A stretch of 63,452 nucleotides of DNA, counting the filler, from Craspedostauros australis (lineage: Eukaryota), in the NCBI GenBank assembly GCA_030167865.1. It is 13 parts of 13 records of this genome, joined end to end, with 100 filler letters (N's around TTAATTAATTAA, not from the genome) between each part and the next. Parts side by side here need not be neighbours in the genome. Positions count along the whole stretch, not along the records: positions 39,112 to 43,031 come from JALAGF010001717.1; 12 more parts are not named here. The stretch is one strand, 5' to 3'. This document shows, in pieces, positions 4,096 to 63,452 of the stretch. The notes below the pieces were generated by a model. That model did not search any database. It had not been told where the DNA came from and worked only from the letters and a program-made list of their open reading frames with translations. Made by a program: the position numbers and the translations under genes. The stretch's first letter is position 1; each line of letters opens with the position of its first letter.

Positions 4096-4629
4096 GAATG
4101 GGCACGACGCACAAGTACCACGCAACTACGCCGGTAAATCATACTCATACTCATACCATACTAATACATATATTATTATGCACAACTTCGATACCTCCAC
4201 ACTCCTATGAGCAGAATAGCAGAGCCTCCAGAAAAGATATGTCGAAGGCATTCTCTTGTATTATATGAATGACACGGCACGGCATTGCACCAAGAGCAGG
4301 TCGTATTCTCGTGTACGGCAGGACTTTGTTCAAAGCAACGTTTCGAGCGTGGCAAGGAAAGACAGCACAACAGGTCATGTCCACCAGACAGTTGCGACAT
4401 CGGGCTGCTGTGGTGTCGCGAAGCGCTGAGCGTGCTCTTGGTCTGTCGATCGCAAGGGTTTGCATTGGCACTTGCAGATCTCCTGCATCGAGTGGTTTGG
4501 TCTGACATGCTCGCCTTCGCTTCGCTCGGTATGGTAGGTACAGCCATCAAATTCCAACCCTGTCTGCAGACCGGATCTTGTGGTGGTGAGCAACTCCAAA
4601 TCATTGACGCTATTCCACCTCTCTAGCAC

Positions 4630-4668
4630 CACGTCTCACCTCACGTCTCACCTCACGTCTCAACCTCC
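4630..4668. repeat. 12-bp tandem repeat (CACGTCTCACCT) x3
   Basis: Directly visible. Confidence 0.8.
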
Positions 4669-6783: not shown

Positions 6784-7806
6784 ACTTAGACCATCATAGA
6801 TGCATCACAGATGCTAGCACCATACTATCCTATGTTTGTAAGCGCGTCGTATCATACAAACCACGACAATCTCTAACAGTCTCCATTGCCACACTTCACA
6901 TTCATCTGGAACATATAGTATGCATACAGAACTAGAGTATGTACCTACATGGACACGATGTCAGCAACGGCCCGTATCCTGATTCAACCTCGCAGGAATC
7001 CATGTGCGCAGTGGCGTTGCATTCCAGACTCTTCTTCGGGACACACCGACAACTCACATGCGCCTCGACTAGAGAGAGAGAGCACATACTCTTACTCTTA
7101 CTCTTGCTCTTATTATGATATCCAATGCTGTCCACGCCAACCTGCACTAATACAGCAACGAAGGCAAGCCGGAGACACAATAGGCACCGCCGGTGCATTG
7201 CGAACCAGCACAATGGTTCGCCATACGAGAGGTGGCGCGGGATGTTGGACTTCTATGGTGATAACATTCTAGTACATACTCAACCACTAGCTCCATTGGC
7301 ACCCACATACTCAAGTATAGCCGACGATGACTGTTCACTTTTTGCCGCGACATCGTGCTCGTATCTCCATTCCTCTCACAGATGTTGGGCTTTGCGGTGC
7401 ACGCAAAATGTGACCAGTCGACAAATACTTCGAGAGAACCCGCACTCTCCACACCAAAGAGGAAAGCGTCGTGAGCAACGCATCGAACCATCCATTTTGT
7501 CGCGAACAGTCCGCTTCATCAGACGCTTTCAAGTCAACGTGACCAAACTAAGAGCACACTGTACTGTAATCTTACGAATAGACAAATGCAATGCATACGA
7601 GTTATGTGCGCAATATTGTCTAATACAATCGTAGACCGAAAGATCTGTCTCTAACGTTCTCTCAGTTCAAGGGCGACGCGGCTGGGTGTCCGAGTCGGTT
7701 CCGCACCGCTTCGCATGACTGCACCTCCATGGCATCGAATCGTGCGAGGGTCCTCAAACCCCGCTACGTAAGTTCGTGCAGTATCGAGTCGCAGCGCGTT
7801 GCCGTC

Positions 7807-9224
7807 CTACTGCATCGCAAAGATGCGACTATCGACCATGTACGGCGAGTCGGCAAAGATCGTGAGATCGCCGCTGTCTTTGCCAGGGACGGGAAAGACC
7901 CGCAGGCTCAGACTCTTGTCCCAGCGGCTCGCAATGCCGCTGACGTCCAGAATGAGACCGGTGACCTCCTGGACCGTGCAGTTGCCAGGGACCGGCACGG
8001 TGTCTACGCCCACACCGCAGACGCTGCTGATGCTCAGCAGATCCGTGATACGCAGCTGGCGGTTGGGTGCCTTCGATGCCAGTTCTGCCAACCTCCTATC
8101 TTCGCACACCGGAAGCATGAGTCCGCAGTACCCGGTTCTCCGAATGTCGGGGAGCGACTGAAGGGCTTTTGTCAGCTCTGCCGCCACGCCCAACGTCCCC
8201 GGTCCACCGAACTCGGCCAGTTCATCCAGCTGTTCCATGGCAGCAGCGATGGAACCGTCTTCGGGGTTCAAGGATGGGTTGAGGGAAGTATCCATGCCCA
8301 AATAAATCCACCGCTTGAAGTGGGAGCCGCCGCTGCCGTCGTCTTTGTCCCACAGTGACTCCCTCTCCTTCACGATCTCCAAGCAAGCATCTTGAACCGG
8401 TCGGACCCTCTCGGCGAAGCCATTGCGGAAGGTTGTTGGGATCGCACCTATGGATCCGCACTTCTTGAGAAGCTCGGTCGTGAGGTTCCCATTCTCCAGA
8501 CCGATGGCAAAGCCGATGGTGGAAGCATCGTGCACGGCGTTGCTGCAGCTTTTGGCGGCGGGAAAGAATGGAATATATGGCCGGCATGATGCGGCTGCGC
8601 AGAAGCGGAAGTTGCCAAGTCCATTCTGAACGAAGGAAGGCGGTGATGGTGACGATGATGCTGCTGCAGCTGCATCGTCCTTTCTGGATTTCTGCTGTTC
8701 GCCCATCGATGCGATATGCAAGATGGTACGCGCCGTCGCTTTGGCCCGATCCAGCATGGTGCTGCCATCGGACACAACGCTGGGGCATTGATCCCCGCAA
8801 TGCTCGGAGATGGGTGCTGAACAAGAGAAGTGCTGCGAAGACCGCACGATCATGGGACAGATGGTCTCGATTTCATGAACCGAGGATGCCGGCCCGAACG
8901 AGAAGAACTCGATGTCGCACTGCTCCAACGTCACGGCCAAGCGATCGAGGATGCTCTGGATGACATCCAACCCGCGTTGGGAACCGTCAGGTGACATGGT
9001 GAGCCACTCGTGGAAAGCATTTGTTGCGATGCGGAGGGTCTGCACGACGTGCCCCTGCGCTGTGAGCTTCGCCTGCACTGCGTGCACAAGCTCTGAGCAC
9101 ATCTGGATGCGCTGAGACAGAGCGGATGCGGTTCCTTGTCCATCTGGTTCGGCATCTTGAGATTGCAGGTTGAGGAATGCTGTAACCGCACGCACCGTGA
9201 CCAGTGGCGATCCTTGTCCCCCTG

Positions 9225-14915: not shown

Positions 14916-15452
14916 TGCGGAGACACATTGCGGAGCATAGCTGGGGTGGCATGAGTACGTACGTACGGACGTACCTTTCACGGCGAGGATCGTTGATACC
15001 ACCCTGATACCACTGGCACATCTGCTGCACCTGCGAGCATCATCGGAAAGCGATCAAACAACAAAACGCAACCCATACATACATACAGTAATACAATAGA
15101 GCAGACTGGATACGAACTTTCGAATGCATGTTAGTAATGTGCGCGGTCGGATAGGTCCGAAGCAACAGAGCCGCACGTCCAGATCGCCACCATCTGCAAT
15201 CTTGGCAGGATACCAACACATGCACCCCACATAGCTGGAATGCAGACAGACGCCCGGCTGCCATCTTGCTAACGTCGAAGACGATTGTGCAGGCCGGTCC
15301 GTTTGAGAATGGATTGTCGATCGGCAAAGTCATCATCATCTTGAGCAGAGATACAGTCCCGTGACTCTTCCACCGTTGAAGACGTACGTAGGACCAGTAC
15401 AAAAATTCGCACGTAGAACGCGTAGAATCAGTACTAGCACAAAAACTTGACA

Positions 15453-17855
15453 ATGGTGCGCACCGACGCCCAAAACAGTCCTGTCAAAGTGAACCAGAGT
15501 GCTCGAACGGCATCGACCATGGCACGAGGACGCACAGGAAGAGGAGGCCTTCAGGCCCGTGGTACTGGCCCCAAAGGAGGTGGCCGAGGAGGCAAGAGGC
15601 AGACCAGGGACTCTCCAGGGAAGAAGATGGCAAAAAAGACCCAGACAGCGAACGAGAACGGGTGGATTTGGAGTCATCAACACGAGCAAAGCTGGGGTGA
15701 CATCCTTCGCGAGCGAAATTTGATGACTCGCGGCTACGAACCCTTCCCAGCGGCAACCGGTGTTGAAGGAGCGCTTGACGAGTCCATTGCCTTTGTGAAA
15801 GAGATGAGACCAGAGCTCGCCAACGGAGCATCACTCACGCAATGGAAAGGACTCTTCAGCGATGCGTACGACAACAAGCTGCCAGCGGAGTCCAACCTCC
15901 AGATGATACAAATCATGCTGAGGCTGCTGACTACCTCCAACATCTTCTCGTCGTCCATGTGGAAACTGGGGCAGATCCAGTCAACGCACAAGACTGCCGC
16001 CTGGATCGCGGCCAGGACAGTGTTCATGGAGGTCAAAGGCATATTCCTTGACAAAGACGGCGACGAGGTGGTGGCACAATCCAGCTCACCCAATCTGAAA
16101 TCCAAGAAGAAGTCAAGGAAGCCAAAAAACAAGGTGAAGGCGTACCCAAGAAAACAACCACAGGCCCGTGAGCTGGTGAGCGTCAACGACGTCCTCAGCG
16201 AATTCCACAAGACCTTCTTCGATGTCCGACTCCCAATGTCAAGGGAAGGGAGCAAAACTCCACTGGCACAGGCTATTGCAGGGTTGAACGCCCTACGCGC
16301 GTTCGTCTTCCAAGCCGACTCAAAAGCACAAATCCTCGCATGGAGAAAGAGCAAAGAGGTGCGCCCGTGGACCGCCGCAGATGTGGCCTGGACCAACCGC
16401 GAGACAGTGAAGCAATTTGTCGACAGCCTGTACGCAAGAACCGGATTCATGACGTACACGCGGGTATGGATCGCCCACAAACAAGACCTTGACGCATTTG
16501 AAGACGACGGCACGCTGGCAACAGCAGCAATCTCTTTTCGAAAATCCGATATTCAAGAACACAACATTGTGGCGGCAGGATGGCTATTCGGCAGCCACAG
16601 CACCATGAATACGGATGACCTGGCAGAGGTGATCAACGAGCATGAACTCGTTCAGAATCAATGTGTGGTCCAGCTCCGCATACGCGAGATACAGCTGGTG
16701 AAGAGAAGAGGCAGAAGAGCGGAATCCGACGACTACCGCAGCAGGCCAAGGGCCACACACATCATGTGTGGGGAGTCCAAATCCGCGATCTGCAGAATTG
16801 CGATGAAGGACATGTTCAACAGTCGCGCAGATACGGTTCGATTGCTCGGGAAACAGATGCGCTTCATGCCAGATGCGCTGGACCAACGCTTTCATCACCC
16901 GCCGTCCGAACTTGCAGATCTCAGCACGATGGCAGCACACCAAGTCGCCTTTGAAAAGAAAATGGTGACGCAGGGCGTGTACTCCATCATGCAGCTGGAC
17001 GTGGAGGTACCAATCTGGAGGCTCACCCTACGAGAAGTCATCATGAACCTCAGATCATTTGACGATCCTGACTACACGTTGTTCGTCTCGGTCGACACAG
17101 ACCGGTCTGACCGCAACCGTACCTTCTTCGTCTTTCATCCCAAGAGACAGGTGGAAGCAAGAGAGCTGATCTCCAAACTGCCGTTCTTCTGCAGCAAGAA
17201 GCTCGACCACAAGTGCAGAGGATGGTTCACTCCGGAATCCTGGGCCCAGAATGAGTACTACGAGGTCGACTGGGAAACCGGGCTGGTCAGAAGCAAGGAG
17301 GAACTTGAAATGGGACAGCTGGCGCAGGCCGGCGCACACTTCCTAGACCTGGACGAGGACGAGATGATCGGGCTGTCAGCAGAGGACGTCGGATGGGAGG
17401 GGTACGTGGATGAAAACGGGAAGATGAAGCCGGTACCCTTGCTGAAATTCGAAGTTGAGATGACAGCCAACCCGAGAACCCAAAACGGGGACAACGGCAC
17501 AGTCGCCACATTCGCGACCGCGACAATGGCACAACAGAGCGCTCACATCTCCTCTGCCATCGGCAACACGGTGCGGCACAAGTCGGCCAGACCAGAGCAG
17601 TTCGCGACGGACCCATCGGCCAAGACCGATTTCAATCCCGACGACCCCATCCTGGAGGAAGACAGCCCGGACACCGATGAGAGCGACCAGATGAAGGGAC
17701 AAAAGTCCAGAGAAGACGAAGACAGCGGTGACAACTCGAGTGTTACCGAAGAAGATGGAAGGGAGGAGACCGTTCCACACAGAGAGGACACAGAAGATCC
17801 TATGGAGACAGATCCAATTTCACCAGATGGCACCGGCGCCCCAAGCCAGGAGTAG
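15453..17855 (+). CDS. Non-LTR retrotransposon ORF1 protein
   Basis: 800-aa ORF directly upstream of ORF2; RGG/K-rich N-terminus, acidic C-terminus; no domain recognised. Confidence 0.8.
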   Translation: MVRTDAQNSPVKVNQSARTASTMARGRTGRGGLQARGTGPKGGGRGGKRQTRDSPGKKMAKKTQTANENGWIWSHQHEQSWGDILRERNLMTRGYEPFPAATGVEGALDESIAFVKEMRPELANGASLTQWKGLFSDAYDNKLPAESNLQMIQIMLRLLTTSNIFSSSMWKLGQIQSTHKTAAWIAARTVFMEVKGIFLDKDGDEVVAQSSSPNLKSKKKSRKPKNKVKAYPRKQPQARELVSVNDVLSEFHKTFFDVRLPMSREGSKTPLAQAIAGLNALRAFVFQADSKAQILAWRKSKEVRPWTAADVAWTNRETVKQFVDSLYARTGFMTYTRVWIAHKQDLDAFEDDGTLATAAISFRKSDIQEHNIVAAGWLFGSHSTMNTDDLAEVINEHELVQNQCVVQLRIREIQLVKRRGRRAESDDYRSRPRATHIMCGESKSAICRIAMKDMFNSRADTVRLLGKQMRFMPDALDQRFHHPPSELADLSTMAAHQVAFEKKMVTQGVYSIMQLDVEVPIWRLTLREVIMNLRSFDDPDYTLFVSVDTDRSDRNRTFFVFHPKRQVEARELISKLPFFCSKKLDHKCRGWFTPESWAQNEYYEVDWETGLVRSKEELEMGQLAQAGAHFLDLDEDEMIGLSAEDVGWEGYVDENGKMKPVPLLKFEVEMTANPRTQNGDNGTVATFATATMAQQSAHISSAIGNTVRHKSARPEQFATDPSAKTDFNPDDPILEEDSPDTDESDQMKGQKSREDEDSGDNSSVTEEDGREETVPHREDTEDPMETDPISPDGTGAPSQE

Positions 17856-18045
17856 AAAAAAAGGAAAGAGAGAATCGGAAAACACACGAACAGCGAAAAG
17901 GACGCGAACAGCAAAGACACAACACAACAACAACGCAATCAACAAGAAAGAACAACAAGCACTAGTCGACGGGTACCAGACCCGACCACACAAAACCCTC
18001 CGCGAAGAGAGGCACCACCACTAAAATAGTGGAACAACAACAACA

Positions 18046-21000
18046 ATGACAACCGGCAACAGCCAGACACGAAAGTCCGTACCACCGAGTAATAGCGACG
18101 ACATGATGTCTGCCACAGCCAACACAATAGCGAGCAGTCTAAACGATGCTTGCGGGGATGCGATGGGGACTAAAACCCAGGACACGATAAGGATCGTGTT
18201 CCAGAATGCATCTCAGATCCCGATTCACGCGTATCAACAGAAGAACGACGAGATCTTCGAATTCGTCCAAACGAGCGGACTCGACGTGCTCTGCATGGCG
18301 GAAACCAACATTCGGTGGGACCATGTCCGGCCTCAAGATCAATGGTCGGAAAGAGCCAGATCACCAATACCCAGGTCAAAGCACGTGTTCGCATACAACA
18401 CGCATGAACCAAAAAGAGACCCAAGGATTTACGGAGGCGCAGGAACGGTGCTTACCGCCCAGATGGCCGCCCGAACATTCCAAAGCGGAGTCGACGAAAG
18501 CGGGATGGGAAGATGGTGTTGGACCCTATCGGAAGGCAAAGCAGGAAGGATGCTGAGGACGATAGCGGCTTACCGTCCATGCCGCTCGACCAGCGGCGAC
18601 AACACGGTCTGGGCACAACAGTCCAGAGTGTTGAACGCAGAAGGACGAGTCGATAACCCGCACGAAGCATGGATACAAGATCTACTGGAAGAACTGAGGA
18701 GATGGAGGTCCCAAGGCGACACGATCATTATGGGCGTTGACCTCAACGACGATGTGATGGACAGCGCTACCGCCCAGCAACTACACGCTGTCGGAATGAA
18801 GAATGCAGTTGAAGCGCGGGTGGGAAGTGAGGCCAGACAGGCCACTCAACAACGGAATCGCGAAGGAACACCCATCGATGCGATATACACCTCTGAAGGG
18901 GTACAAATCGAGAGCGCGGGATACCTTGCCTTTGGCGCCGCCATCCCTTCGGACCACCGAGCGATTTGGGCAGATGTCAGTTTCGCGCAGATCCTAGGCG
19001 CGGGAATCAGGCCAGTCAAGACCAAATCCCCACGACGGTTGGTGCTGAGCGACCCTCGAGTAGTCCAGAGATACAATGATGCACTCTTTGAAGAGTTTGC
19101 CCGGCACAACATCCCCCAACGAGTGGAGAAGATGTGGACAACGGTGAAACGACAAGGATGGACGCTGACGATTACACAACGAACGCAGTTCGACAAGCTT
19201 CTGGATCAGATCCACCAGATGCGCAGATCCGCGGAGAAAAGCTGTCGAAAGCTTAAGATGGGTTGCGTATCATGGTCCCCGGAAATACAGCATTCACGTG
19301 ACGCGATCAAGCATTGGACCCTGGAGGTGAAGCAACAAGCCGGCGTGAAAGTGAGTTCATCCCTACGCCTGCGCACCCGCCGAAAAACGGCCCTCCCAGA
19401 AAGTACGTCACTCCAGCACGCCCAGCAGATGCGCGTAGAGGCATACAGGACCTACTACGCACAAAAGAAGGATCACGACAGAGCAAGGCAGGACTATCTG
19501 GTACAATTGGCACGACAACGGCACGACGCAAAAGAGCAGGAATACGAATCGGCATTGCATCTGCTGCTGAATCGAGAGAAACAGCGAGAGCAAGCGCGAC
19601 GGCTGCGTGCCGTCTTCGGAAGTGGCAAGTCCATGACTACCAAGGTGCTGTTCACAGACGACAGTGGCCAGGTACATGAGTGCAACGATCAACACGAGAT
19701 AGTCACTGCATGTATACGAGAGAATAAGAAACGATTCTCCCAAGCAAACCGTACTCCATGCATGACGGGTGAAGGCAAGAAGTTCATGGACAGGATATGG
19801 TGCCCACAGCTGGCACCCCAACTGATAAAGGCCGGCGCCCAGATTCCAGAGTCGATTGATCCAATGATACAGGTTTTGCTGGAGTCGTTGGAACCGGTGC
19901 CACCAGACGTGTCAGAGCTGTCAGTCGAAGATCATGTAAAAGCATGGAAGAAGCAGACTGAACTGACCAACTCTGAGCCGAGCTGCCCCCACTTTGGGCA
20001 CTACAAGGCATCAGCGATTTCCTCGACGCTGGCGCGAGTCGATTCACGCATGCGGGAGATCCCCTACCAGACTGGACACTCCCCCTCACCCTGGCAACGC
20101 ATCACCGACGTGGAAATACTGAAAAAAGCGCAAGTGTTCAATATAGAGAAAATGCGTACCATCCAATTGATGGACGCTCAGTTCAATTTGAACAACAAGA
20201 GACTGGGCAAACAAATGATGGCAACAGCGGAGGCAGCCGGATGGCTTTCTGAGCATCAGTTTGGGAGCCGCAAGCAGAGGTCAGCCATGAGCGCCGCGCT
20301 CAACAAGCGTCTCTCTATCGACTTAGGGTTTCAACGGAAGGTGGCGGTCTCATTCTGTTCAAACAACGCGAAATCCTGCTACGACAGGATTGTTCCCAAC
20401 TTCGCAGCCGCAGCCATGATAGCTGCAGGCGCCAACAGCTCGGCCACCCGTAGCATGTTCAAGACGCTACGAGACGCCAAGCATCACATCAGTACTGCGT
20501 ACGGAGTTTCCCAACGGCATTACACGAAGGGAGCGGACTGCGACATGCACGGCATAGGTCAAGGTAACGGAGCGGGTCCGGCAATATGGGCCGTGATCAG
20601 CTCTGTGCTGTTCAAGGCCATGACAAGGTTGGGCCACTCGTTCTCTCTCAGAAGCCCATCCGGTGAAGCCTTGCCCATCCTGGGTTCGGCGTTCGTCGAC
20701 GACACTGACCTGGTCAGACTTGAGCGACGCCGGAAGGACTCAGCCGATACGGAAGCATTCAAACGCATCATACTCGACTGGGGGAACTTGTTACGGGTCA
20801 CTGGAGGTGCTCTGGTGCCAGAGAAGTCCGCATGGTGGGCCATGCAACCCCGGTTCGACAAAGACAAATGGGAGTGGCACGACGCCAACGGCGGTACCGA
20901 CATACGGATCGACGACGGCCACGGAGGAAGCGCCGACATCCCACGAAGGGCGATGGACCAACCCTTGTTCACCCTGGGGGTGTTTATTGACTTCGACGGC

Positions 21001-23571
21001 GACAGTGACTCGCAAGTTCAAGCTATGCGGAAGAAGGCTGAGGATTTTGGAGGGAGGATGCGCACGGCGCAGATTTCCCCGGAAGATGCCCGATCTGCCT
21101 TAACACTGCAGTTCATGAAGTCCATCGAGTACGCCATGCCTCTCGTTCAGCTTGCCCCGAGTGAGTGGAGATACATAATGGCCCCGGCCTTGTTGGCCGC
21201 GCTACCCAAGATGGGTTGCTCTAGAAATATGCCGAGAGATTTGGTGTACGGAACAAAGTCGCTCGGAGGGTTGGGAATCAGGAATCCCGCCAACTCCCAG
21301 TTGATAGCGCAAATCCGCCTTGTCTTTGACGAAGTGCACCGAGGAACACAAACAGGCGCAATGTTCAAGTGCTCGATCCAGGCCCTGAAGGAGGAGCTCG
21401 GAATCGGTGGCTCGTTGTTTCAGTATCCATTCGGAGTTATCGGTCACTGCGCAACCCGTTGCTGGATCACAGGTCTATGGCGGCAGCTTCACGGCACCGG
21501 CATAGAGGTGATCGAAACGACGGAGTCGAGAGAAACGCAGCGGGAAGGCGACTCTTTCCTTATGGACCTGTGGATTCGCCAGAGAGTGAAAGGGGCGCAG
21601 CTGTATCATCTCAACATGATACGACAGAAGTTGGGAGTCCTACGACTTTCGGATATTGTGTCAGCCGACGGCACCAGAATAGTGCCAGGAGTACTTGACG
21701 GAACTTTTGAGTCAAGTACGCCCCAGCCGTGGGCGCGACAGCCGAAACGGTTACCGAGTGGGTGGTGGAGAGAATGGCAACGATGGTGCAAGTCCTTGTG
21801 CTTTCACGGTCTTCTTCTACATCATCCGCTTGGAAGATGGCTACGCGACGACGGATCTTGGCGGTGGTGGAAAGCTCCCTATCAGGATGATATCTTTGAC
21901 ATATCCGTTTCTCCATTCTTGCAATACTTACCGAATCCTTGGCGGCGCACGCGGCGACAGCAATACACCCGCACAAGAGCCGTCGCGGAAATCCCCGAGG
22001 GAGCCAAACGCGTCTCGGTGGTAGTCACGGAGCAGGGTATCGAATGGAATGGGCACCTTGGTCTCTCAAGCGTCCCAGACGAGCCCGCTGACGCTCCGTT
22101 CCCGTTCGAAGATATGCGAGGAGCCATGTCCCTTCAGGAAGCGGCCAGAGCAGCGAATCGGGGAACTCTAGTGATGGTGAGCGACGGGTCATTCAAGGAC
22201 CAACGCGGCACATCGGTCTCTACAGCCTATGACACGGAGTCCGAGCGATACATCTACTGCCACACGTTTGTCCCAGGTCCCCCAACCGTCCAAAGTGCTT
22301 ACCGCAGTGAGCTGGCAGGGATTTGGGCATCGCTTGCCATGCTTAGCATTATGCCCGGGCTGATGCCTAGCGCGGTTGTTACTATCGCGCTCGACGGCAA
22401 ACAGGCGCTCACGCAGGCGCAAAAGGACGATCTGCGGCCCAGTCAGAAGGATTGGGACATTCTCACGGAGATTCAGATGCTAAGACATGAGATACCGGCA
22501 TCATTGAAATGGGAATGGGTCAAAGGCCACCAAGACGACACCGGGAAGAAGCTAACTCTGCTCGAGCAGCTCAACGTGGAAGTCGATCGGAGAGCCAAAC
22601 AATTTTGGGAAACCACCATATCACGGCCCCACAACACGCAGTGGGCCACTGACACCGTTCGGTGGCGCATACGACTTCGCGGCAGTGATCACTCCCATGT
22701 GGATCCTGATGCCATTAACGAGCTACTACAGTCCAATTCGGCAATGCAGTACTGGTCTTCGAAGTTCAAATGGAACCCCACTCAGCTGAGCCAGGTCGAC
22801 TGGCAAACCTACAAATTGGCGCGCAAGTCCAAGTCCAATCGAAGCTCCACGACGTTCATCACTAAATGGTCATCGGGTTTTGTTGGAGTCAACCGGAAAT
22901 TGTTCCAGACGGGGCAACTGCCTTCATCCAAGTGCAAGTTCTGCAATCAGGAGGAGACGACTCAACACGTACTGAAGTGCTCAGAACACTTGGGCGCATG
23001 GAAAGAAGCCACGGACGGCCTTGTGGGCCGTATGCTGGAGATCGGAACGTCTCCTCGCCTGGTGAGCAACATGAGAGTGGGGCTGGTGAAATGGAGACGA
23101 AACGCGCGATCATCGGACGCCCAAAGTACCGTTGGTTGGTACCCGCTCCTGCTGGGATTTTTGCACACAGACTGGATCCGTCAACAAGAGCTATGGATGA
23201 AAACGCACGAGTGCCGATACCCGGACGCGGCGGTGTGGGCCAGAGAGGTGGTGCGATGGATATGGAAGGTGCCTTGGGAAGTGTGGTTGGCACGCAATGC
23301 AAAAGTACATGACGAAGAGAACCACCCGACAATGCGGGATCTGCGGCGACAGGTCCAGCGCCTTCTTCAAAGCGCGAGCAAGGATATGAACGATTCGGAG
23401 CTTCATCTACTCCGTGTAGGTCGTATCGTCGAAAGTGGCACAGAAGAGCAGATGAGACAGTGGGTGAATTCTATGATAGCCGTACAAGCGACGGTGAAAG
23501 CGCGGCGACGGTCACGAACAATGCAGGCTGAAAGGCAGGCAATGGCGTCGTGGCTAGGGCTGGGCTCATAG
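18046..23571 (+). CDS. Non-LTR retrotransposon ORF2: APE endonuclease, reverse transcriptase, RNase H, Zn finger
   Basis: APE: IVFQN, CMAETN, MGVDLND, IDAIY, SDHRAIW. RT: QFGSRK, NNAKSCYDRI, GIGQGNGAGP, AFVDDT. RNase H: VSDGSF, RSELAGI, ALDGKQAL, WVKGHQD, NVEVDRRAK. Zn finger: CKFC-x7-H-x3-C. Confidence 0.95.
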   Translation: MTTGNSQTRKSVPPSNSDDMMSATANTIASSLNDACGDAMGTKTQDTIRIVFQNASQIPIHAYQQKNDEIFEFVQTSGLDVLCMAETNIRWDHVRPQDQWSERARSPIPRSKHVFAYNTHEPKRDPRIYGGAGTVLTAQMAARTFQSGVDESGMGRWCWTLSEGKAGRMLRTIAAYRPCRSTSGDNTVWAQQSRVLNAEGRVDNPHEAWIQDLLEELRRWRSQGDTIIMGVDLNDDVMDSATAQQLHAVGMKNAVEARVGSEARQATQQRNREGTPIDAIYTSEGVQIESAGYLAFGAAIPSDHRAIWADVSFAQILGAGIRPVKTKSPRRLVLSDPRVVQRYNDALFEEFARHNIPQRVEKMWTTVKRQGWTLTITQRTQFDKLLDQIHQMRRSAEKSCRKLKMGCVSWSPEIQHSRDAIKHWTLEVKQQAGVKVSSSLRLRTRRKTALPESTSLQHAQQMRVEAYRTYYAQKKDHDRARQDYLVQLARQRHDAKEQEYESALHLLLNREKQREQARRLRAVFGSGKSMTTKVLFTDDSGQVHECNDQHEIVTACIRENKKRFSQANRTPCMTGEGKKFMDRIWCPQLAPQLIKAGAQIPESIDPMIQVLLESLEPVPPDVSELSVEDHVKAWKKQTELTNSEPSCPHFGHYKASAISSTLARVDSRMREIPYQTGHSPSPWQRITDVEILKKAQVFNIEKMRTIQLMDAQFNLNNKRLGKQMMATAEAAGWLSEHQFGSRKQRSAMSAALNKRLSIDLGFQRKVAVSFCSNNAKSCYDRIVPNFAAAAMIAAGANSSATRSMFKTLRDAKHHISTAYGVSQRHYTKGADCDMHGIGQGNGAGPAIWAVISSVLFKAMTRLGHSFSLRSPSGEALPILGSAFVDDTDLVRLERRRKDSADTEAFKRIILDWGNLLRVTGGALVPEKSAWWAMQPRFDKDKWEWHDANGGTDIRIDDGHGGSADIPRRAMDQPLFTLGVFIDFDGDSDSQVQAMRKKAEDFGGRMRTAQISPEDARSALTLQFMKSIEYAMPLVQLAPSEWRYIMAPALLAALPKMGCSRNMPRDLVYGTKSLGGLGIRNPANSQLIAQIRLVFDEVHRGTQTGAMFKCSIQALKEELGIGGSLFQYPFGVIGHCATRCWITGLWRQLHGTGIEVIETTESRETQREGDSFLMDLWIRQRVKGAQLYHLNMIRQKLGVLRLSDIVSADGTRIVPGVLDGTFESSTPQPWARQPKRLPSGWWREWQRWCKSLCFHGLLLHHPLGRWLRDDGSWRWWKAPYQDDIFDISVSPFLQYLPNPWRRTRRQQYTRTRAVAEIPEGAKRVSVVVTEQGIEWNGHLGLSSVPDEPADAPFPFEDMRGAMSLQEAARAANRGTLVMVSDGSFKDQRGTSVSTAYDTESERYIYCHTFVPGPPTVQSAYRSELAGIWASLAMLSIMPGLMPSAVVTIALDGKQALTQAQKDDLRPSQKDWDILTEIQMLRHEIPASLKWEWVKGHQDDTGKKLTLLEQLNVEVDRRAKQFWETTISRPHNTQWATDTVRWRIRLRGSDHSHVDPDAINELLQSNSAMQYWSSKFKWNPTQLSQVDWQTYKLARKSKSNRSSTTFITKWSSGFVGVNRKLFQTGQLPSSKCKFCNQEETTQHVLKCSEHLGAWKEATDGLVGRMLEIGTSPRLVSNMRVGLVKWRRNARSSDAQSTVGWYPLLLGFLHTDWIRQQELWMKTHECRYPDAAVWAREVVRWIWKVPWEVWLARNAKVHDEENHPTMRDLRRQVQRLLQSASKDMNDSELHLLRVGRIVESGTEEQMRQWVNSMIAVQATVKARRRSRTMQAERQAMASWLGLGS

Positions 23572-28392: not shown

Positions 28393-28733
28393 CTACCAGG
28401 TCTACAGGAATGAAATATGTTGTGAATATTCCATCAGATTCGATCAATCNTCAGNTTCAACAAAACCNGAGAANGGAACAACNACGAGACAACGAGAGAG
28501 AAACNACAANGTTGACGATNAAGTCAACATCAACGAGCAACATGAGAGCAATGTGCATGAAGGTGCAAGAGGATTGCACCAAGCAATGAGAGCAAGGAAG
28601 AGATGGATCAAGAGAGCATCTTGATCATCTCATNNNNNNNNNNNNNNNNNNNNNNNNNNNNNNNNNNNNNNNNNNNNTTAATTAATTAANNNNNNNNNNN
28701 NNNNNNNNNNNNNNNNNNNNNNNNNNNNNNNNN

Positions 28734-37236: not shown

Positions 37237-39112
37237 CGTTTCAACTGTGTGATATCGTTTCTTCATCCCACTAAGACTACAAACAAACTCATACTACCAT
37301 AAGCCAAGACTAGTACAAACAGCACTACTCTACTCATCGTTACAGTATCATTTCTTCCACAAGTTCACTCCTCCTGAACTGCATTGCACGGTTAACCTGA
37401 AACCGGCAGTTCGCGAAGCTTTTCCACCGAATTGTGTCATCAACGGAGCACGAATTCCAACTGAGTTTCTTTTCACCCAACTTGGTAAATACCCTTTTCA
37501 TGACTTTTCACATGTCTGTCTTTCTGAATTTTTGATGAGTTGGCGGCTAATCCATAGACACATAGCTTTTGTCTGCGTTGGGTGGTAGGGTTACTAGCAC
37601 CTTCAAGCTTGCCTTGAATCATCCGGCTCGTTCCCTCCAGGCCAATTTCGTTTCAAGTCTCTGCCTCGGCTGTTCGCGTTGGTGTTGACTGATTCGATCT
37701 TGGTTGGAGGGAGAGCGCTGGAATCCCCCCTGGCAGAGGGAGAGTGGAGGTGGTTGTAAGGGTCATAATTTCATAATCTGGGCCTCTCGACCAATCATAT
37801 CGCTTCATTTAGGGCACAAGATACCTNNNNNNNNNNNNNNNNNNNNNNNNNNNNNNNNNNNNNNNNNNNNTTAATTAATTAANNNNNNNNNNNNNNNNNN
37901 NNNNNNNNNNNNNNNNNNNNNNNNNNAATTGGAGCAAACAGGTAAATGATGCACATATCTACGACTACGTAGGCATTAATTCCCTTCATTAGATGAAGTA
38001 CGTTCGTATGGACGAATTAATGACATAATGTTACAAGTATGACAAACATGGATGATGTGGCTTTTACTTTTCCTGTGTGATACAAGTAGTCTACACTGAT
38101 ACACTAGCCTTGGGGGCGATGCGAAATATATGTGTCCGTGGGATGTCGCATGGACATTTCGACGTTTTGAGTCGCTAAGAAACACAAAATAGGCTGGTTA
38201 GTGCAAATCGGCACTTCAAAAAGGCTGGTTAGTGAATTTCCTCCTTTCGGGTTTCAGCCTCTTGCTTCCGACTACATCGATCCAATTTAACCCTCTGCTG
38301 TTCTTTGTTTCAGCAACTGTGTTCCGATTTTGAATTGTTTAGTCTCTTTTTCAGGTGTTCGGATGAGGCCATCCAACAGTCCATCCACGATAGCACTAGT
38401 TGTAGAATGTTGGGGGAAGCGGCGAATGCGTGTTTACGTTGATGACACCATATGCGTGTCCAATCCGTCATCGACGTCACGAAATTGGATACTTCGTCAT
38501 GAAACACCAATGATATCACGATGCGCAACATCAGCAGGTCTGCTTCGTCGTGGCGAAGTGGTTGAGTGGGGTTGGTACTCCTCGAGTGTTTTGTGTCGTG
38601 GTCTTTTTGGATAGTCGGTACAATTGTTGGTAAATCTCCACATCCCCCAACATGTGAGGCTGGCCGAGAGTGGCAAACTCGACACACCAACATGGAAGTG
38701 GAGCAACACCAAANNNNNNNNNNNNNNNNNNNNNAACGGTATGCTTGGCGCCGCAACAACCAGCCGGCCAATTCAAGATCCAAGAACATCGCCGTCACCT
38801 CCACGCAACGTTTGGTGGGTGGACGAACGGAGGCGGGAAGAGGAGTTGATTTGGGGCCGTCGTAGGCCCCAGAAATACGATCACGATTTGGCCCCAAATC
38901 GGCTCGTTGGTTTTGGCCTGTGTATGGCACACACAGGCCATATCAGCGCCTACGGATACGCAAGACGCCTCAGGAAGGCCAAGACGAAGGCACCCTCGAA
39001 GTTTGAGGCTCNNNNNNNNNNNNNNNNNNNNNNNNNNNNNNNNNNNNNNNNNNNNTTAATTAATTAANNNNNNNNNNNNNNNNNNNNNNNNNNNNNNNNN
39101 NNNNNNNNNNNA

Positions 39113-42100
39113 GGCAAACCCCTCATCATCCAAAAGGGACTCTACGGCCTGAGGACATCAAGTGCGAGGTTTCACGAACACTTCGCGGACACCCTTCGAA
39201 CCATGGGATTCTTACCCTCCAAGGCCGACAATGACATCTACACCCGAGAAGCCGACGACCACTACGAGATGATCACTACATACGTGGATGACGTACTGNN
39301 NNNNNNNNNNNNNNNNNNNNNNNNNNNNNNNNNNNNNNNNNNNNNNNNNNNNNNNNNNNNNNNNNNNNNNNNNNNNNNNNNNNNNNNNNNNNNNNNNNNN
39401 NNNNNNNNNNNNNNNNNNNNNNNNNNNNNNNNNNNNNNNGGACTCTCGGCCCAGACATACATCGGGAACGTCATCAAACGAGTGGAGCAACTAGTAGGGA
39501 AGACAATCCTGAAGGCATCCACTCCCATGGTAGAGGCCTGTCACCCAGAAAGTGACACCTCGGACTTCACAGGCGCAGAGGACGCCAGGACTTACCGATC
39601 GATACTGGGTTGCCTCAATTGGGTCGTGACCCTCGGAAGGCTGGACATCCAATACGCCACGACCACGATGGCACGGTTCGCTATGGCACCAAGGGAAGGA
39701 CATCTCCTGACCATCCAACGTATCATCGGGTACCTCAAAGGTTGAGAAAGGGGAGCCATCCTTTGCGACCCCAACCCAGTGGACCACACGAACATCGACA
39801 CTACCCTCTCAAGCCATTGGAGAGAATTCTACCCCACTGCAGCAGAAGTCACCCCCGTATCAGTACCAACACCAAAAGGGAAACCGGTCCAAATCACGTG
39901 TTACGTGGACGCCGACCATGGCCATGACCAGGTCACATGGAAGTCCATGACGGGTGTGGTACTATTGATCAACAACACCATTGTCAAGACCATCTGCAAG
40001 CGACAGAACACAGTGGAGACATCCACCTACGGATCCGAATTGGTAGCAGCCAGGATAGCTACCGAGGCGGTCACAGGTCTGCGATACATGTTGAGAGATC
40101 TCGGAGTCCCCATCGACGGACCCGCAATCATGCTCGGAGACAACAAAGCAGTGGTACTCAATACCACGGTCCCATCCTCAACGTTGAAGAAGAAACACTG
40201 TTCATTGGCTTTCCACCAAATCCGGGAATGCATCGCCGCTGGAATCATCGTGTTCGCCCACATTGCGTCNNNNNNNNNNNNNNNNNNNNNNNNNNNNNNN
40301 NNNNNNNNNNNNNNNNNNNNNCACCACATCACGTCGAGAACGATATTCCGGAACTCAATCCATGAGTCCGGATACCACAACGAAACCATATCACAAGCCA
40401 TAACAAAGAGCAGGACGACCAGAGCAGAAGAGGACCCCGAGCTAATGGCCACGGAAACGCAAGAACCACCACCACCGAAGGAAGAACACACTATGAGTGT
40501 AAACATGGCGAGATATCAACAGACCTCCATGAAATACAGCCCGACATCGAAAACCCTTCGGCTAACCAGAACCCAACGAGAACCGAACCCCCTCGAAATG
40601 GCACAAAGGAAATCACCCAGAACCATCAAGCGCACCAAGAGCACACCGGCCTCGCCCAACCGCCAACAGACGCGAAATTCCAATGTCGTATACGACATGA
40701 CCAACAACCGTACCACGAATCAGAACCACGAGCCAGCCGGCGCGCCAACCGACAATTTCACGATCCGGCGTGGCGACACACCACCATCAGCCCTCACAGA
40801 CGAATTCAGCGCACTCTCAAGTATCAACCCCTCATGTGGAAGCGACGTCCTCTACTACCCAAGAGACATGCTGGAGACAGGGCCCATCATGCCGAGCAAC
40901 CAATCACACGTCGCCACATCGACCAAGTTCCGGAAACCGACACCTGGAACCAACATGCCAGCCATCCAAGAAGATAACTGTGAAACTTCCTTCCACACGG
41001 GCCTGACACCTCGGGCTTTCGTCACACCTGAGCACGAAACATACAGGTGTGACATGCTGATTGCTGATCTCCAGGAAGACTTGGCACGGAATGCGACCGC
41101 ATCCGCTCTTGCATTTCGCAACATGAACATGCCTTCCCCTCGAAAACGGAACCGCCACAATCAGGATCCCGGACACAACTTCACCCCGCGACAGACAAGA
41201 ACACCCACCATGACGTTCCCAAAGTACACCCCGTTCTACCAGGGCATTCATTGTCCCGTCCCCGGATCCAGGGTACTATATCCCGCAGGAAAGAAGGGAC
41301 CCTTCCAAGGAATCGTCGTCGGGTACAGTGGCCGTAGAGTCCGAATCTTCTGCACGAAGGGAAACGAGAACGCACCACCCGGCGAAATCACCCACGTAGA
41401 GAAACAATCCATCTACCCCCTCACCCTCTCCGAATACCTGGATAACAACCTCCAAACCACCGAGGTCCTCAGCATCGCCATTGCCGATGGCCAGTGCTTC
41501 TACCCCGCTCAGGACGGCGCATGGGGCGAACCACCCGACGAGTTCCGCGCAACCATGCGGAAGCTATCCATATGCCACTTCTTCAAGGTGAGGAAGAACC
41601 GGATCCCAATCATCCTCACACGCGCAAGGAAGGCACGAATGGTCCGGAAACAAAGCGACACCCTCGCTGTCAACCTCGCACGAGAGAAGAAAGCACTCGC
41701 GAACGAGCCTTTTCCCCCTACCGATGAGGATGAGATGGTCAATGGGATACCATCCCTCGAAGATTCCCGTCCCAGTCTCGAAGTGGGAGAGACACCAGAG
41801 AGCAGGTTCCTGGATGAGATCCCTGACGGATTCTTTGACAAAAAGATGACCGCAGAAGAAGCCAGCCGCCAGGAGTCTGAATCAGAGGTGTACCACGATG
41901 AAGACCAGGAACCGCAGGACCCAGGAAGTGTGATTGACGTGGAAGCAGAGATCGCAAGTGGAGCGGTGATCAGCCATCCCAGACCTCCCATCAGACGATC
42001 ATCACGACCATCACCGGCGTCCAAAATCTTGACCGCCACGCGAGATGGACAAGGGTATACCGACAAGGTACGCCCAAAGCCCATGATCCCAACCGACCAC

Positions 42101-42964
42101 TCCGTGGACAGCGCGTCCATCCCAGAGCCCGGCGACAGTGACGATTCTGGGTCCATCTTCCGACCAGAAGACAACCCAATCGACCGGAACCAATCATCGC
42201 GACGACCCAGCTCTGGAGCCAGCAGCAAGCAAAGCAATCGCCCCAAAAGAAAGGGGCTTTTCGACGAATCCGAGGACTCCACCATTTCCTCGGGAATGTC
42301 GGGAATCAAGACGATCAAACAGGTCAGGTCCGCCAAGAAAACCACGAGTGGGACCATCAACGCGAAGAGAGCCCCTACCACGGCCGCGGAGAATCCTCCC
42401 GAGGCAGCAGAGCCGATGCCTCCCATAACCCAGGATGAGCAACCAGAGGTCCCTACTCCACCGGAGGGACCAACCGATGATGACGTGCCGGTAGCAACCG
42501 CGTACCCGGCACCCGTGAATTACAATGAGTACGCGAACGCCAATACCCGCCAACTCCGTGCCTCGAACCATCCCCTACCAACGACTCCCGACACTCCGGA
42601 GACCAGCAATGCCAACAAGAGAGCCCGAACGGAGGCCCGACCAGCGATAGCATACCCGTCACCCCGACGTCTTCGATCCGGATATATCATGTCCAGCAAC
42701 CGAGGACCAACGATGATGCAACCATCCATCTTCCAGATGCCTCCCGACCCCACAGCTCAGATCAAGGCCGTCCTCCAAAACGACGAGAGAACACCTATGG
42801 TCATCCAAACCCTCGCCGATATCCTTTTCTGCGGAGGGCTCGACCATATCAACCAAGTTCAGCAGGTCAGCATCACCTCCTCGTTGAACAAGGCACTGGA
42901 AGCCATGCTCACCAACCGCCACCAAAGCCGCGGCTACTACGACAACGACGAACAGTCCGAATGA
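39113..42964 (+). mobile_element. Ty1/Copia pol fragment (RT + RNase H) with internal TGA and long in-frame C-terminal extension
   Basis: KGLYGLRTS, YVDD, YRSILGCLNW, CYVDADHGHD, ETSTYGSELVAARIATE, LGDNKAVV, LKKKH; in-frame TGA at 39743-39745; frame stays open to 42964. Confidence 0.92.
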
Positions 42965-43131
42965 AGCCCGCTCGCCGCCATCTTGGGCGGCGGAACAAAC
43001 CACACTACGATTAGCTTTCTTGCTTTCAGTCNNNNNNNNNNNNNNNNNNNNNNNNNNNNNNNNNNNNNNNNNNNNTTAATTAATTAANNNNNNNNNNNNN
43101 NNNNNNNNNNNNNNNNNNNNNNNNNNNNNNN

Positions 43132-50281: not shown

Positions 50282-51142
50282 AAGCTCCATTATGAGGCAG
50301 TCAAGTACCTCTTCCGCTACATCGCTGCCACGCGGGAGCTTGGGATCACCTACTGGCGACCGTCACCACTGCCTGATCTTCCTGATATCCTGGTGCCCGT
50401 CCCTCTTTCACCACCGGAGGACGTTTCGCATAACGTGGATGGTCATACAACGGTCCGGTTCTCCACGGTCTATGGCTACGTGGATGCTGACTGGGGATCC
50501 GATATTCGACATCGGCGCTCTGTCACTGGCATCGTGTTCATGTTCGGCGGCGCTGCCGTCGCATGGAAGACCAGAGTCCAGCCAACNNNNNNNNNNNNNN
50601 NNNNNNNNNNNNNNNNNNNNNNNNNNNNNNNNNNNNNNNNNNNNNNNNNNNNNNNNNNNNNNNNNNNNNNNNNNNNNNNNNNNNNNNNNNNNNNNNNNAC
50701 TCTCATCTTCGAGGACAACCGAGGAGCACGCATGATGGCCAATGCAAGTCAGCCTACACGGAATTCGAGACATATTGATATCCGGACCTTCGCAGTCAGT
50801 GACTGGGTGGATCGGGATCTTATTCTTATCGAGGACGTCGCGTCCGATCTCAACGCTGCAGATGCGTGTACCAAGCAAACGCCTTCGGTTCTCTTCTTCC
50901 GCCATACTGACTTGATCATGGGTCGCTTCCGCCCGTCTTACGCTCAAGACCATGATGGGCGTCGCTCTGTCAGAGCAATTTTTCCCGCTGGAGATCTTCC
51001 AGCGTGGGGGGTGTTGGCATACGTACGCAGGACAGACGTCCGCAGCCTCCGCCTCTGAAGAGTGACAACGGAGACAGTCTCCTCCCATAAATCCATCATT
51101 AGCACACACACACACACACATCCTCCCGTACAGATACTGACA
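50282..51142 (+). mobile_element. Ty1/Copia 3' end: RT tail, RNase H, PPT and short 3' LTR (~51012-51142)
   Basis: GYVDADWG...RRSVTG, FEDNRGA, RHIDIR, NAADACTK; GGGGGG PPT directly followed by TGTTGGCA...CTGACA. Confidence 0.9.
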
Positions 51143-51805: not shown

Positions 51806-52971
51806 TGTTGGCAAGCCCCATTATTGGTACACTTGCCGTTGCTTGCGATGAAGATGGTGGTGGTGGTTGATCTTGATTCTGTTTGCTATTTCATTACATA
51901 GAAACTGATACTCTTGGTGTTGACTCCAGTGCTCCTGGGTGTCCTGTCTGTTGATCCAAGCCAACTATGAGTCAGATGCAGACGTGCTCCCTCTCATGAT
52001 GTTCATCATCGTCCCTGTACTTCTCTCTTACACTCGTTTGCGTAGCACTCCTACGAGATCCTACACATTCGATTCATGGTTCATCACCTTATCCTCCATG
52101 AGCATACTACCATGTGCACGTGTAGGCGCTGTCGTCTAATTCCGAACTCCTTCTTGACCTTTCAAGATCTCGATGACCAATCGTCATTGAATCTTCTTTG
52201 TTCTCTGCCGGATGTTGAGACAGCTGTTGATGTGGTGACACAATGACATTCTGTCAACGTCAGCTGCTATCTTCCCTGCATTCTCTGATTCCTCATTCCG
52301 TCATCATATGGTGGTCAGATGGTCATGTTGTCATTTTGGGTTTAGTTGCAACCTCCATCGATCCTTGCTTAATGCCATGTCGGCTGGTGGACGTACAAAA
52401 ATCCTGATCGTCTCAGGTTAGATTGTCCCAACGTCCCCGTGTGATTCTTGGGTGATTTGGTGTGTCCGAGTTTGTTTTGTTGTTCTCAAACACGAAACGT
52501 TCAGGACACGAATATTGTCGACGCTAGTTGGTCGAGTTGAGGAAAACCAATTGGATGGGCGATGCACATACATATACATCTCGGCACCCTTCCTGTGTGC
52601 ATTCGGTCACTCGAATGTTCTCGATGTGTCAAGGTACGACTTCTCATGTTCGCGTTGTAAGTCGGCCTTGATGTTCTTGGTGAATCCGTCGCTTGTGTTC
52701 TGCTCGGATTTGACGAAGATGATTTCGATGGTCTTGTTGATTACCATGTTCCTCACGTAATGATGGCGCACGTCGATGTGCCGTGATCGTTGGGATGTTG
52801 ATGGGTTCTTGGCTATGATGATTGCTCCGATGTTGTCCACACGGACCTTGATCGGCGTCTTCACTGGAATGCCGACACTTTCGAGTGGCTGCATGACGAA
52901 GAAGATCTCCTTTGCCGCTTCGGAAAGGGCAACGTATTCTGCTTCGGATGAGCTGAGTGTGACGGCCTTCT
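51806..52971 (-). mobile_element. Ty1/Copia 3' end on minus strand: RNase H (52971-52607), 3' UTR and 3' LTR (~52432-51806)
   Basis: VTLSSSEAEYVALSEAAKE, VDNIGAI, RSRHIDVRHHYVR, SDGFTK; GGGGA PPT-like run near 52434-52438; LTR homologous to 34026. Confidence 0.88.
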
Positions 52972-62089: not shown

Positions 62090-63452
62090 CCGTTACGACA
62101 TCGACGAGTGCGCAGTCCATCTTCTTGATCAGCATGATCACCATCATGACCCGATAGGTCACGTCATGGATGATGGGTGAGTAGTGCTCTTGGAAGTCCA
62201 CTCCTGCGACTTGTGAATAGCCACATGCAACGAGCCGCGCTCGATGTGTGCCGTTACGCTTCAGCTTGAAGACCCATTTGCATTTGCAGCATCTGCGGCC
62301 GCGTGGGATGGCGTCTCGTTTGATCTTGCTGTACACTTTGCGTGTNNNNNNNNNNNNNNNNNNNNNNNNNNNNNNNNNNNNNNNNNNNNNNNNNNNNNNN
62401 NNNNNNNNNNNNNNNNNNNNNNNNNNNNNNNNNNNNNNNNNNNNNNNNNNNNNNNNNNNNNNNTTCTCGTCCTGCATCGACAATCCGATGTCGATCGCTG
62501 GTGATTCGGTAATGATTGCATTCATTCCGTACAGTCCTGTTGTGCTATGGTGAGTGATCTCGATCTCTCCTTCATCTGCAATTTCTTCGTCATCTGTAGT
62601 TTCGTTGTTGGAGTCGTCGATCATCTCGTCGCTGAGTTCGTCACTCGCGTCATCGGATGATGGATCGCTTTCATATCCTTCTTCCTTTCAACCTCGTTCG
62701 TTGAAGTCTGCGAGCTCACGCAGAGCTCTAGGAATACTCTTTCCTGTAGTTGGCTTGGGATCAGTTTCTCCCTTCCTGCCTCGTGCTTCGTGACGTCGGA
62801 TCCTCTCCTTTCTAGCTATATCACGCTTGTTTGGCTTGCTCGGTGGAGATCTGGATGGTGTACCATGTGTAGACCTCGCTGGTGTGTTTGGAGGAGTAAC
62901 GTCTGTGTCATCGTCGGCTTCGTCGCTGGATGGTGTGATCTCGTCATCCTCATGATTGGATTCGCTCCGATCTTCCTCGTCGTTATGGACCAATTGAGTT
63001 ACTACTCCGTCGTCCTCATTATCCTCGTCGTCGCTGTCTGATAGGATATAGTACATGTTGCTGTCAGCAAAAGATACTCTCTTTGCTTCCGATGCTTGAC
63101 GCGTTGCCGTCCTTGGCATCGCTCCCTTCCGTCCAATGATTGTTAAGCCATCTGCGTCCGTTGTTCCTACTTCGTTGGATATGTTTGGTGCTGGTGTCCA
63201 GCCACGGAACTGTCCGTATGATTGGTTGAGCCATTTGATGTCGCGAGAGCAGATGAGTGACTTGGTTGATGGTCTGTACATGTTGTAGACCCCTGATGCG
63301 TGTTGGTGTGCATATCTGATGAACACCATCTCTTCTCCTCTATTCTTGAGTTTGGCGGTGATCCCGCTGTAGGTAGTCTTCACAACACCCACCTCTCCAA
63401 ATGTACGGAGTGCATCCGCATATGGTGGATCGTTGCCGAAGAATTGTCGATG
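62090..63452 (-). mobile_element. Ty1/Copia pol fragment: integrase C-terminal SH3 region, acidic linker, start of RT; one in-frame TGA
   Basis: LRTFGEVGVV, KLKNRG..MVFIRYA, KCKWVFKLKRNG..RARLVACGYSQVAGVDF.EHYSP; TGA at 62690-62688 between two in-frame ORFs. Confidence 0.92.

Follow-up and report, generated by a model that had tools for sequence, protein, structure and literature searches.

An 880-codon open frame continuing from the RNase H of a damaged Ty1/Copia retrotransposon copy in Craspedostauros australis

Results

A Copia Pol end that continues in frame beyond RNase H

We analysed a 63,452-base stretch of DNA from Craspedostauros australis (assembly GCA_030167865.1), hereafter the window, which is a chain of small contigs joined by 12 linkers of the form N44-TTAATTAATTAA-N44; because it is a concatenation, features on different pieces are not genomic neighbours. 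The subject of this study is one scaffold of the window (JALAGF010001717.1), which carries the 3' part of the pol gene of a Ty1/Copia long terminal repeat (LTR) retrotransposon and, continuing from its RNase H in the same reading frame, a long extension. The features of the scaffold are as follows, in window coordinates.

39112..43031 (no strand): whole scaffold with the studied frame, 3920 bases, bounded by contig linkers (N-run mapping)
39113..39298 (+): Ty1/Copia reverse transcriptase (RT) fragment, Pfam RVT_2 (PF07727), E 3.3e-06, 27.3 bits
39299..39439 (no strand): 141-N run within the RT, equal to 47 codons, length and frame kept, crossed by ungapped tblastn pieces
39440..39742 (+): RT thumb/connection region of pol, found with a profile of 15 relatives' polyproteins
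39743..39745 (+): in-frame TGA within pol
39746..40269 (+): Copia RNase H domain, retaining the columns that are invariant in 16 aligned sequences
40270..40321 (no strand): 52-N run over the RNase H stretch 'xxNxADxxTKPLxxxxF' (MAFFT and tblastn), length and frame kept
40322..40363 (+): RNase H C-terminal tail, HHITSRTIFRNS..., aligned to 'FHxLxxxxLFRxP' of relatives; tblastn matches end at 40351-40363
40364..42961 (+): orphan extension of about 866 codons, in frame with pol and lacking both a transmembrane segment and any homologue in the searches; Pro, Thr, Ser and Arg are abundant
41207..41716 (+): more hydrophobic 'island', extension residues 296-465, with strands and helices predicted by AlphaFold2
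42749..42925 (+): C-terminal block, extension residues 810-868, four helices predicted by AlphaFold2 at a predicted local distance difference test score (pLDDT) of 40-49 only
42962..42964 (+): final TGA of the frame, which may be a genuine terminator or have arisen by nonsense mutation
42972..42993 (+): GC hairpin 3' of the stop, 8 bp stem and 6-nt loop

The 5' end of the scaffold falls inside the RT, where the tblastn matches of relatives' polyproteins also start. PF07727 identified an RVT_2-type RT, the type found in Ty1/Copia elements, on 39113-39298; its score lies under the 31.6-bit cut-off because the piece is a fragment with only 62 residues visible. A search with the RNase H piece (39746-40267) returned 146 proteins at E<=0.001 among 727 candidates (best E 6e-63), which share 45-67% identity with it and carry PF07727 in 120 of 120 cases among the matches listed; these relatives are numerous Copia pols from marine and freshwater metagenomes. 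When scored against a lineage profile built from 15 full-length polyproteins (1731 positions; hmmsearch with filters off), the RT thumb piece plus RNase H reached 462.7 bits. The order RT to RNase H was seen within a single tblastn piece that corresponds to residues about 2000-2418 of the relatives' polyproteins. The visible pol begins inside the RT, integrase lies off the scaffold, and RNase H is not the last part of the frame here. The TGA at 39743-39745, which the original prediction for this locus had not mentioned, lies in frame, and intact Pol is therefore not producible by the copy as written.

Analysis of the 52-N run bore out two claims of that prediction, namely that a Copia RNase H is fused in frame to a long extension and that the run has the length of the motif it hides. 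MAFFT, run with 23 relatives, aligned the 17 X of the run to the 17 residues 'xxNxADxxTKPLxxxxF' without a gap, and the residues after it, HHITSRTIFRNS, to 'FHxLxxxxLFRxP'; the first 10-14 residues 3' of the run are still RNase H tail. In tblastn with the polyproteins of three relatives, both N runs fell within one ungapped piece per relative, which paired 413, 413 and 417 residues with equal numbers of codons and ran from 39113 to 40351 or 40363. Because the end of RNase H sits 3' of the gap on sequence without interruption (40322-43031), the RNase H tail and the extension are contiguous in one frame. Neither of the internal N runs of the scaffold (n=2; 141 and 52 N) changes the length by even one base, a pattern suggestive of bases hidden within a continuous sequence rather than of scaffold gaps of estimated size. 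Scattered single N are also present in the window, e.g. at 28450-28520, and, together with the length-preserving runs, suggest hidden or low-quality bases rather than sized gaps.

Coding character of the extension

Between 39746 and the TGA at 42962-42964, a single frame runs without a stop for 1072 codons including the N run (standard code, stop to stop), and 880 of these codons lie 3' of the 52-N run (40322-42961). This frame contains the terminal stop only; the other five frames contain 15-35 stops each. Long chance frames are expected because the strand is poor in T, and the longest open frame in 1000 shuffles had a mean of 152 and a maximum of 354 codons, compared with the 880 observed. 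The three codon positions differed in base composition (chi2 86.5, p 1.6e-16). After training on the well-supported coding sequence of the window, a codon model favoured the studied frame in all nine blocks of 100 codons (9/9), with the smallest margin in low-complexity blocks. The extension is real coding sequence, now or recently. Being fused to Pol, it has no start of its own. An antisense frame opposite the extension (41509-42519, minus strand) is open for 336 codons and has a low-complexity, Gly/Ser-rich translation; it is probably a by-product of skewed composition, and was dropped from consideration, being of low complexity and of a kind that such skew leads one to expect.

Comparison of third codon positions revealed no difference between the extension (A/C/G/T 217/361/203/99) and the adjacent pol (84/142/78/33; p 0.91). 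The extension differed in this respect from two host genes (enoyl-CoA hydratase and DUF711; p 1e-05), from the non-LTR retrotransposon of the window (p 1e-08), and from the Copia fragments at 50282-51055 (p about 1e-04) and 62691-63452 (p about 5e-05), and did not differ from the Copia fragment at 52610-52969 (120 codons; p 0.65). The match to pol speaks for a history common with pol rather than for a host gene captured recently. CpG observed/expected was 0.78 in pol (828 bases only) versus 0.99 in the extension. This contrast hints weakly at separate histories of the two parts, and CpG depletion, at first considered as a marker of common history, was dropped.

The Pol end in relatives

To place the length of the extension, we used the best 80 loci (L001-L080) from a metagenome scan in which 325 of 602 pattern-matching stretches encode relatives, and 120 related proteins of 589-1876 residues. 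Pol ended 24-72 codons past the 'FAHI' position in 77 of the 80 loci, and the remaining three leave their contigs after 152, 32 and 11 codons; the extension-bearing copy has a tail of 898 codons from the same position. Tails in the 120 proteins had a median of 39.5 residues and a range of about 18 to 149, with 60 or fewer residues in 96 proteins, 61-100 in 17 and more than 100 in 7. The long tails of relatives were of low complexity and mutually unlike. Pol is variable at its end in this Copia lineage, and no relative approaches 898 codons. The length is unusual, as the original prediction had stated, with no tail above 72 codons among the 77 loci with a visible stop and none above 149 residues among the 120 proteins; the two other Copia 3' ends to which it had pointed in the window do stop early, about 22 and about 62 residues past an ADxxTK-like motif. 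Other Copia fragments in the window lie at 50477-50926 (+), 52631-52969 (-) and 62691-63452 (-) and belong to at least two or three families.

Full-length polyproteins of relatives comprise 2196-2439 residues, beginning with 350-650 variable, disordered residues around a small island; these N-terminal regions are rich in Pro, Ser and Thr and are followed by conserved Gag, protease, integrase, RT and RNase H. Units of four relatives (L004, L007, L017 and L034) measure 8.2-10.7 kb, above the 5.2-8.1 kb of described CoDi elements. L034 encodes, at 1080-8276, a Copia polyprotein of 2399 residues with a Chromo domain (PF00385, E 1.7e-08) at residues 1524-1560, between integrase and RT; Pfam found no Chromo domain in L007 or in the two open reading frames (ORFs) of L004. 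L004 and L007 have identical contig ends of 111 bases and the repeat of L017 lies inside open frames, and these contigs are therefore circular permutations made by the assembler.

One relative departs from the common Pol end. In L002 (1830-2801; 62% identity), the RNase H tail stays open in frame for at least 152 codons, and this tail matches the protease region of the lineage profile (positions 369-483, E 2e-15); L002 is either a rearranged element or an assembly chimera.

Composition of the extension and searches for homologues

Pro (10.5%), Thr (9.1%), Ser (8.9%) and Arg (7.8%) together make up 36% of the extension, and Trp occurs once. This composition, with no confident structure from AlphaFold2, agrees with the original prediction that most of the extension is disordered. 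Several basic clusters look like candidate nuclear localisation signals, as judged from their residues. The maximum Kyte-Doolittle mean over 19 residues was 1.12, and the extension therefore has no membrane span and is not env-like; neither a signal peptide nor a transmembrane segment marks it as such.

Searches with the extension returned no homologue in any collection. Pfam gave no match to the whole extension at E<=1 or to five pieces of it at E<=10; a word-indexed protein search gave none among 6203 candidates of 'near' lengths and 2860 of 'longer' lengths; and phmmer gave 0 at E<=0.001 among 1,835,955,588 representative proteins. Scans of metagenome contigs (34 pattern matches) and viral contigs (4 pattern matches) ended with 0 confirmed in each, and tblastn against phage records, which are of little relevance here, gave none. 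No second copy was present in the window, where tblastn and blastn returned the extension itself and one match at E 7.4. Against the relatives, the best values were E 1.6 for the 80 loci and 120 proteins (tblastn, blastp) and E 0.26 for four polyproteins (BLAST). The lineage profile gave the extension -2.1 bits, compared with 462.7 bits for the pol control, so that it is not recognisable as Gag, protease or integrase of the lineage by this measure. When the relatives' N-terminal islands were compared by BLAST with sequences that included the extension, none matched it.

The island and the C-terminal block

The original prediction had assigned the island to a KOW/SH3/Tudor-like fold. Over 41222-41701, G+C at third codon positions is 0.71, versus 0.64 overall. 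AlphaFold2, run without an alignment, gave a mean pLDDT of 35.7 over the full extension and of 39.5 over the island, with strands predicted at extension residues 317-346 and 386-395, helices around 369-458 and the four helices at 810-868. Pfam at E<=10 found nothing in the island or in a 63-residue core of it, and a search of PDB sequences with the island only found nothing at E<=10. Foldseek of the island model against the PDB gave nothing at E<=0.001; its top rows were hexokinases with a query template-modelling (TM) score of 0.18-0.26 and a root-mean-square deviation of 13 Å, and were disregarded. In the ESM Atlas, the feature scores of the island were 0.82 or less, with matches at 0.76-0.82 including KIF2A-N, Spin/Ssty and DUF3104, and scores below 0.9 were reached by one third of shuffled proteins; the C-terminal block had no usable match there. 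The structural check that had been proposed for the island ended in low confidence and no structural match, and the KOW/SH3/Tudor call is not supported. This is an absence of support and not a disproof, as the models lacked an alignment.

Sequence around the final stop

Past the TGA at 42962-42964, the same frame is open through the remaining 22 codons to the scaffold end, and this TGA is therefore either a true terminator or a second nonsense mutation. Within the alignments of decayed relatives (loci L001-L080), in-frame stops were 33 TGA, 12 TAA and 8 TAG (n=53), a count in which some may be true terminators at alignment ends; deamination of methylated CGA codons would explain the excess of TGA and is a candidate cause. 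Both in-frame stops of the scaffold are TGA as well.

The hairpin that had been noted after the stop is present and its fold is ordinary (z -0.56), since 53 of 200 shuffles fold equally well or better. Hairpin-aided readthrough of the TGA was considered and dropped, the hairpin being ordinary and TGA simply being the commonest nonsense codon in decayed relatives. It is also true that no polypurine tract (PPT) or LTR appears before the contig end, yet only 67 bases follow the stop, which makes their absence uninformative.

Discussion

We tentatively favour, as a possible rather than a probable explanation, that the extension is additional coding sequence specific to one family and fused to the Pol C terminus. 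The scaffold would then represent the 3' half of a CoDi-like (diatom-type) Ty1/Copia copy that is young yet no longer active, and the source element of this copy would have borne about 2.6 kb of extra coding region between RNase H and the 3' LTR. With this region in the Pol frame and no intervening stop, what is an 'additional ORF' would have turned into a C-terminal extension of Pol, translated as the last portion of Gag-Pol and then probably cut free by the element's protease. Its product is predicted to be mostly disordered and rich in Pro, Ser, Thr and Arg, with one small structured island and a helical end. By analogy with the chromodomains of CoDi-A, such a protein might serve in the nucleus as an adaptor by which the replication or integration complex is carried or tethered, although this role is a guess. 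The in-frame continuity with RNase H, the coding character over 880 codons, the pol-like third positions and the variability of the Pol end in relatives all support a region acquired by the family, as do the negligible score of the extension against the lineage profile and the published precedents of extra ORFs 3' of pol and of the CoDi-A chromodomain.

Several findings weigh against such a region. Only one copy is visible, with no second in the window, and this sole copy has a TGA within pol. The scaffold is small and unplaced, with no PPT or LTR to show that the extension lay inside an element. Where a stop is visible, in 77 related loci, the tail never exceeds 72 codons, and with no homologue of the extension found, conservation and selection cannot be shown. 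The CpG contrast points in the same direction, if weakly. Finally, the in-frame join of RNase H to protease in L002 occurs in the lineage or in its assemblies, and raises the prior of a one-off chimera or misjoin in the window. In view of the single damaged copy and of a tail common to no relative, the proposal of a Copia lineage with an extra accessory protein, as originally put forward, is unsupported; what stands of the original prediction is a real frame, fused to RNase H, unusual in length and largely disordered, and what lacks support is the KOW/SH3/Tudor call.

Somewhat doubtful, and still a serious alternative, is a one-off chimeric copy, in which part of another coding sequence became attached to the end of pol through a deletion, a recombination or a template switch in reverse transcription. 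The donor would be an ORF of another mobile element or a host gene that fell into the same orientation and frame by luck, and the extension would not be a feature of an active family. A copy that is already dead from the TGA in pol, the lack of a comparable tail in any relative, the different CpG values of the two parts and the join in L002, which shows that joins or assembly chimeras exist, are all in keeping with such an origin. On this T-poor strand, moreover, chance frames of 100-150 codons are common (the shuffle mean being 152), and the first 300 codons, which are of low complexity and give the weakest frame signal, could conceal a junction. Against a chimera, third positions equal those of the adjacent pol and differ from those of the host genes, the non-LTR element and two of the three other Copia fragments, and no donor was found in any searched collection or in the window. 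The join would also have required the right orientation and frame with no non-coding remnant, only 28 codons separating the end of the RNase H alignment from the first Met. An assembly artefact, in which reads of two repeats were joined just past the RNase H tail, is unlikely. It would suit a 3.9-kb scaffold among many small unplaced pieces, with N runs, repeat sequence and a join that has no independent confirmation; the sequence from 40322 to 43031 is unbroken, however, the frame carries the RNase H tail into the extension without a stop, the N runs are true to length to the base, which suggests continuous sequence and not mate-pair gaps, and the third-position composition of the extension matches that of the adjacent pol.

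In principle, a second element of this kind, adjacent or in tandem, could also have supplied the extension as its N-terminal (Gag-side) region. The giant polyproteins of relatives (2196-2439 residues) do have long, variable N-terminal regions rich in Pro, Ser and Thr, the frame stays open past the TGA at 42962, and TGA is the commonest nonsense codon in decayed relatives (33/53). An LTR and a 5' untranslated region, on the other hand, would need more space than separates the extension from the RNase H tail, no Gag or protease was recognised in the 880 residues by the 15-polyprotein profile even with filters off (-2.1 bits), and the N-terminal islands of relatives do not match the extension by BLAST. 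This origin is unlikely, with only a very slight chance of being correct. For now, the data do not separate a feature of the family from a one-off join, and the value of the locus is that of a lead.

A narrower version of the family-specific coding region holds that the island is a KOW/SH3/Tudor-type beta-barrel, a chromatin or RNA reader or an anti-silencing factor released from Pol. This version is a subset of the reading that we favour, and we regard it as quite improbable. The KIF2A N-terminal domain, Spin/Ssty and DUF3104 families are small beta-barrels, and the ESM Atlas likeness of the island to them (0.76-0.82), the three successive strands predicted by AlphaFold2 over the GSRVLYPAGKKGPFQGIVVGYSGRRVRIF stretch and the integrase chromodomain carried by relatives would be consistent with a reader. 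Opposed to this are the failure of Pfam at E<=10 on the island and its 63-residue core, the empty search of PDB sequences, the mean pLDDT of 39.5, the hexokinases that head the Foldseek rows at a meaningless query TM score (0.18-0.26), and the Atlas scores themselves, which, being under 0.9, lie in a range reached by one third of shuffled proteins. In its fullest form, a diatom Copia family would have gained an accessory protein of about 866 residues at the C terminus of Pol, with the island as a new, divergent Tudor/SH3-type reader and the disordered arms tethering the integration complex or particle to chromatin or RNA granules; we consider this bolder proposal very improbable.

Additional ORFs in Copia elements are exemplified by the sireviruses. 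Maize Bs1 and the capture of oncogenes by retroviruses illustrate chimeric dead copies and gene-transducing retroelements; the studied copy resembles them in having foreign coding sequence in frame with a retroelement protein in a defective copy. In those cases host donors are identifiable, whereas here no donor was found and base usage is pol-like.

CoDi-I and CoDi-A are diatom Ty1/Copia retrotransposons (Maumus 2009, PMC2806351; Llorens 2009, PMC2774666), described CoDi elements measure 5.2-8.1 kb (PMC2806351), and the gain of a chromodomain is a published hallmark of CoDi-A (PMC2774666, PMC5348765). The present lineage resembles them in the Chromo domain between integrase and RT of the relative L034 and in the order RT to RNase H at the Pol end, and the studied copy differs in about 866 further codons past RNase H. 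A coding extension past RNase H in a diatom Copia element was not found described in the available portions of these three papers, a non-exhaustive set (PMC2806351, PMC2774666, PMC5348765), and literature searches listed none. Outside diatoms, sense-strand extra ORFs between pol and the 3' LTR are given as the commonest kind of extra ORF in LTR retrotransposons, with Athila, Bagy2, Grande, RIRE2, Retand and others named (PMC7264820, available portion). The extra ORFs of Athila/Tat-type Ty3/Gypsy elements in that source resemble the extension as sense-strand regions 3' of pol that are family-specific and often domainless; they are usually separate, and the env-like ones have signal or transmembrane segments, whereas the extension is fused and has no membrane span. 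Captured modules are likewise reported from the integrase chromodomains of chromoviruses and oomycete Chronos elements (PMC5348765) and from the N6-methyladenosine (m6A) demethylase of orchid Ty3/Gypsy (PMC9289625), and shared extra ORFs from bdelloid rotifer retrotransposons (PMC5408684), as far as the available text of these papers goes. Domain-capturing LTR retrotransposons share with the studied copy a polyprotein enlarged by a module outside the core replication set. Their modules have cellular homologues and many copies, whereas the extension has one copy and no homologue was found.

If the extension belongs to an active family, it would represent a rare case of a Copia Pol enlarged past RNase H by a large protein without relatives, in the same lineage that independently acquired an integrase chromodomain. 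It would add to the evidence that microalgal retrotransposons acquire modules for interaction with the host, and would offer a concrete candidate for targeting or for escape from silencing. Should the island prove to be a reader, the lineage in which the Copia integrase chromodomain arose would have gained a second targeting module, independent of the first. If the extension instead reflects a one-off chimera or a misjoin, it would be an ordinary outcome of repeat decay and of the assembly of unplaced scaffolds.

Other features of the window

Analysis of tandem repeats gave three trivial rows and nothing else. The non-LTR retrotransposon used above for comparison of third positions lies at 15438-23571 (+) and is apparently intact, with an ORF1 of 805 codons and an ORF2 of 1848 codons. 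Pfam gave no match in ORF1 and no RT in ORF2 at E<=0.001, and ORF2 starts with an Exo_endo_phos endonuclease (E 1.4e-07).

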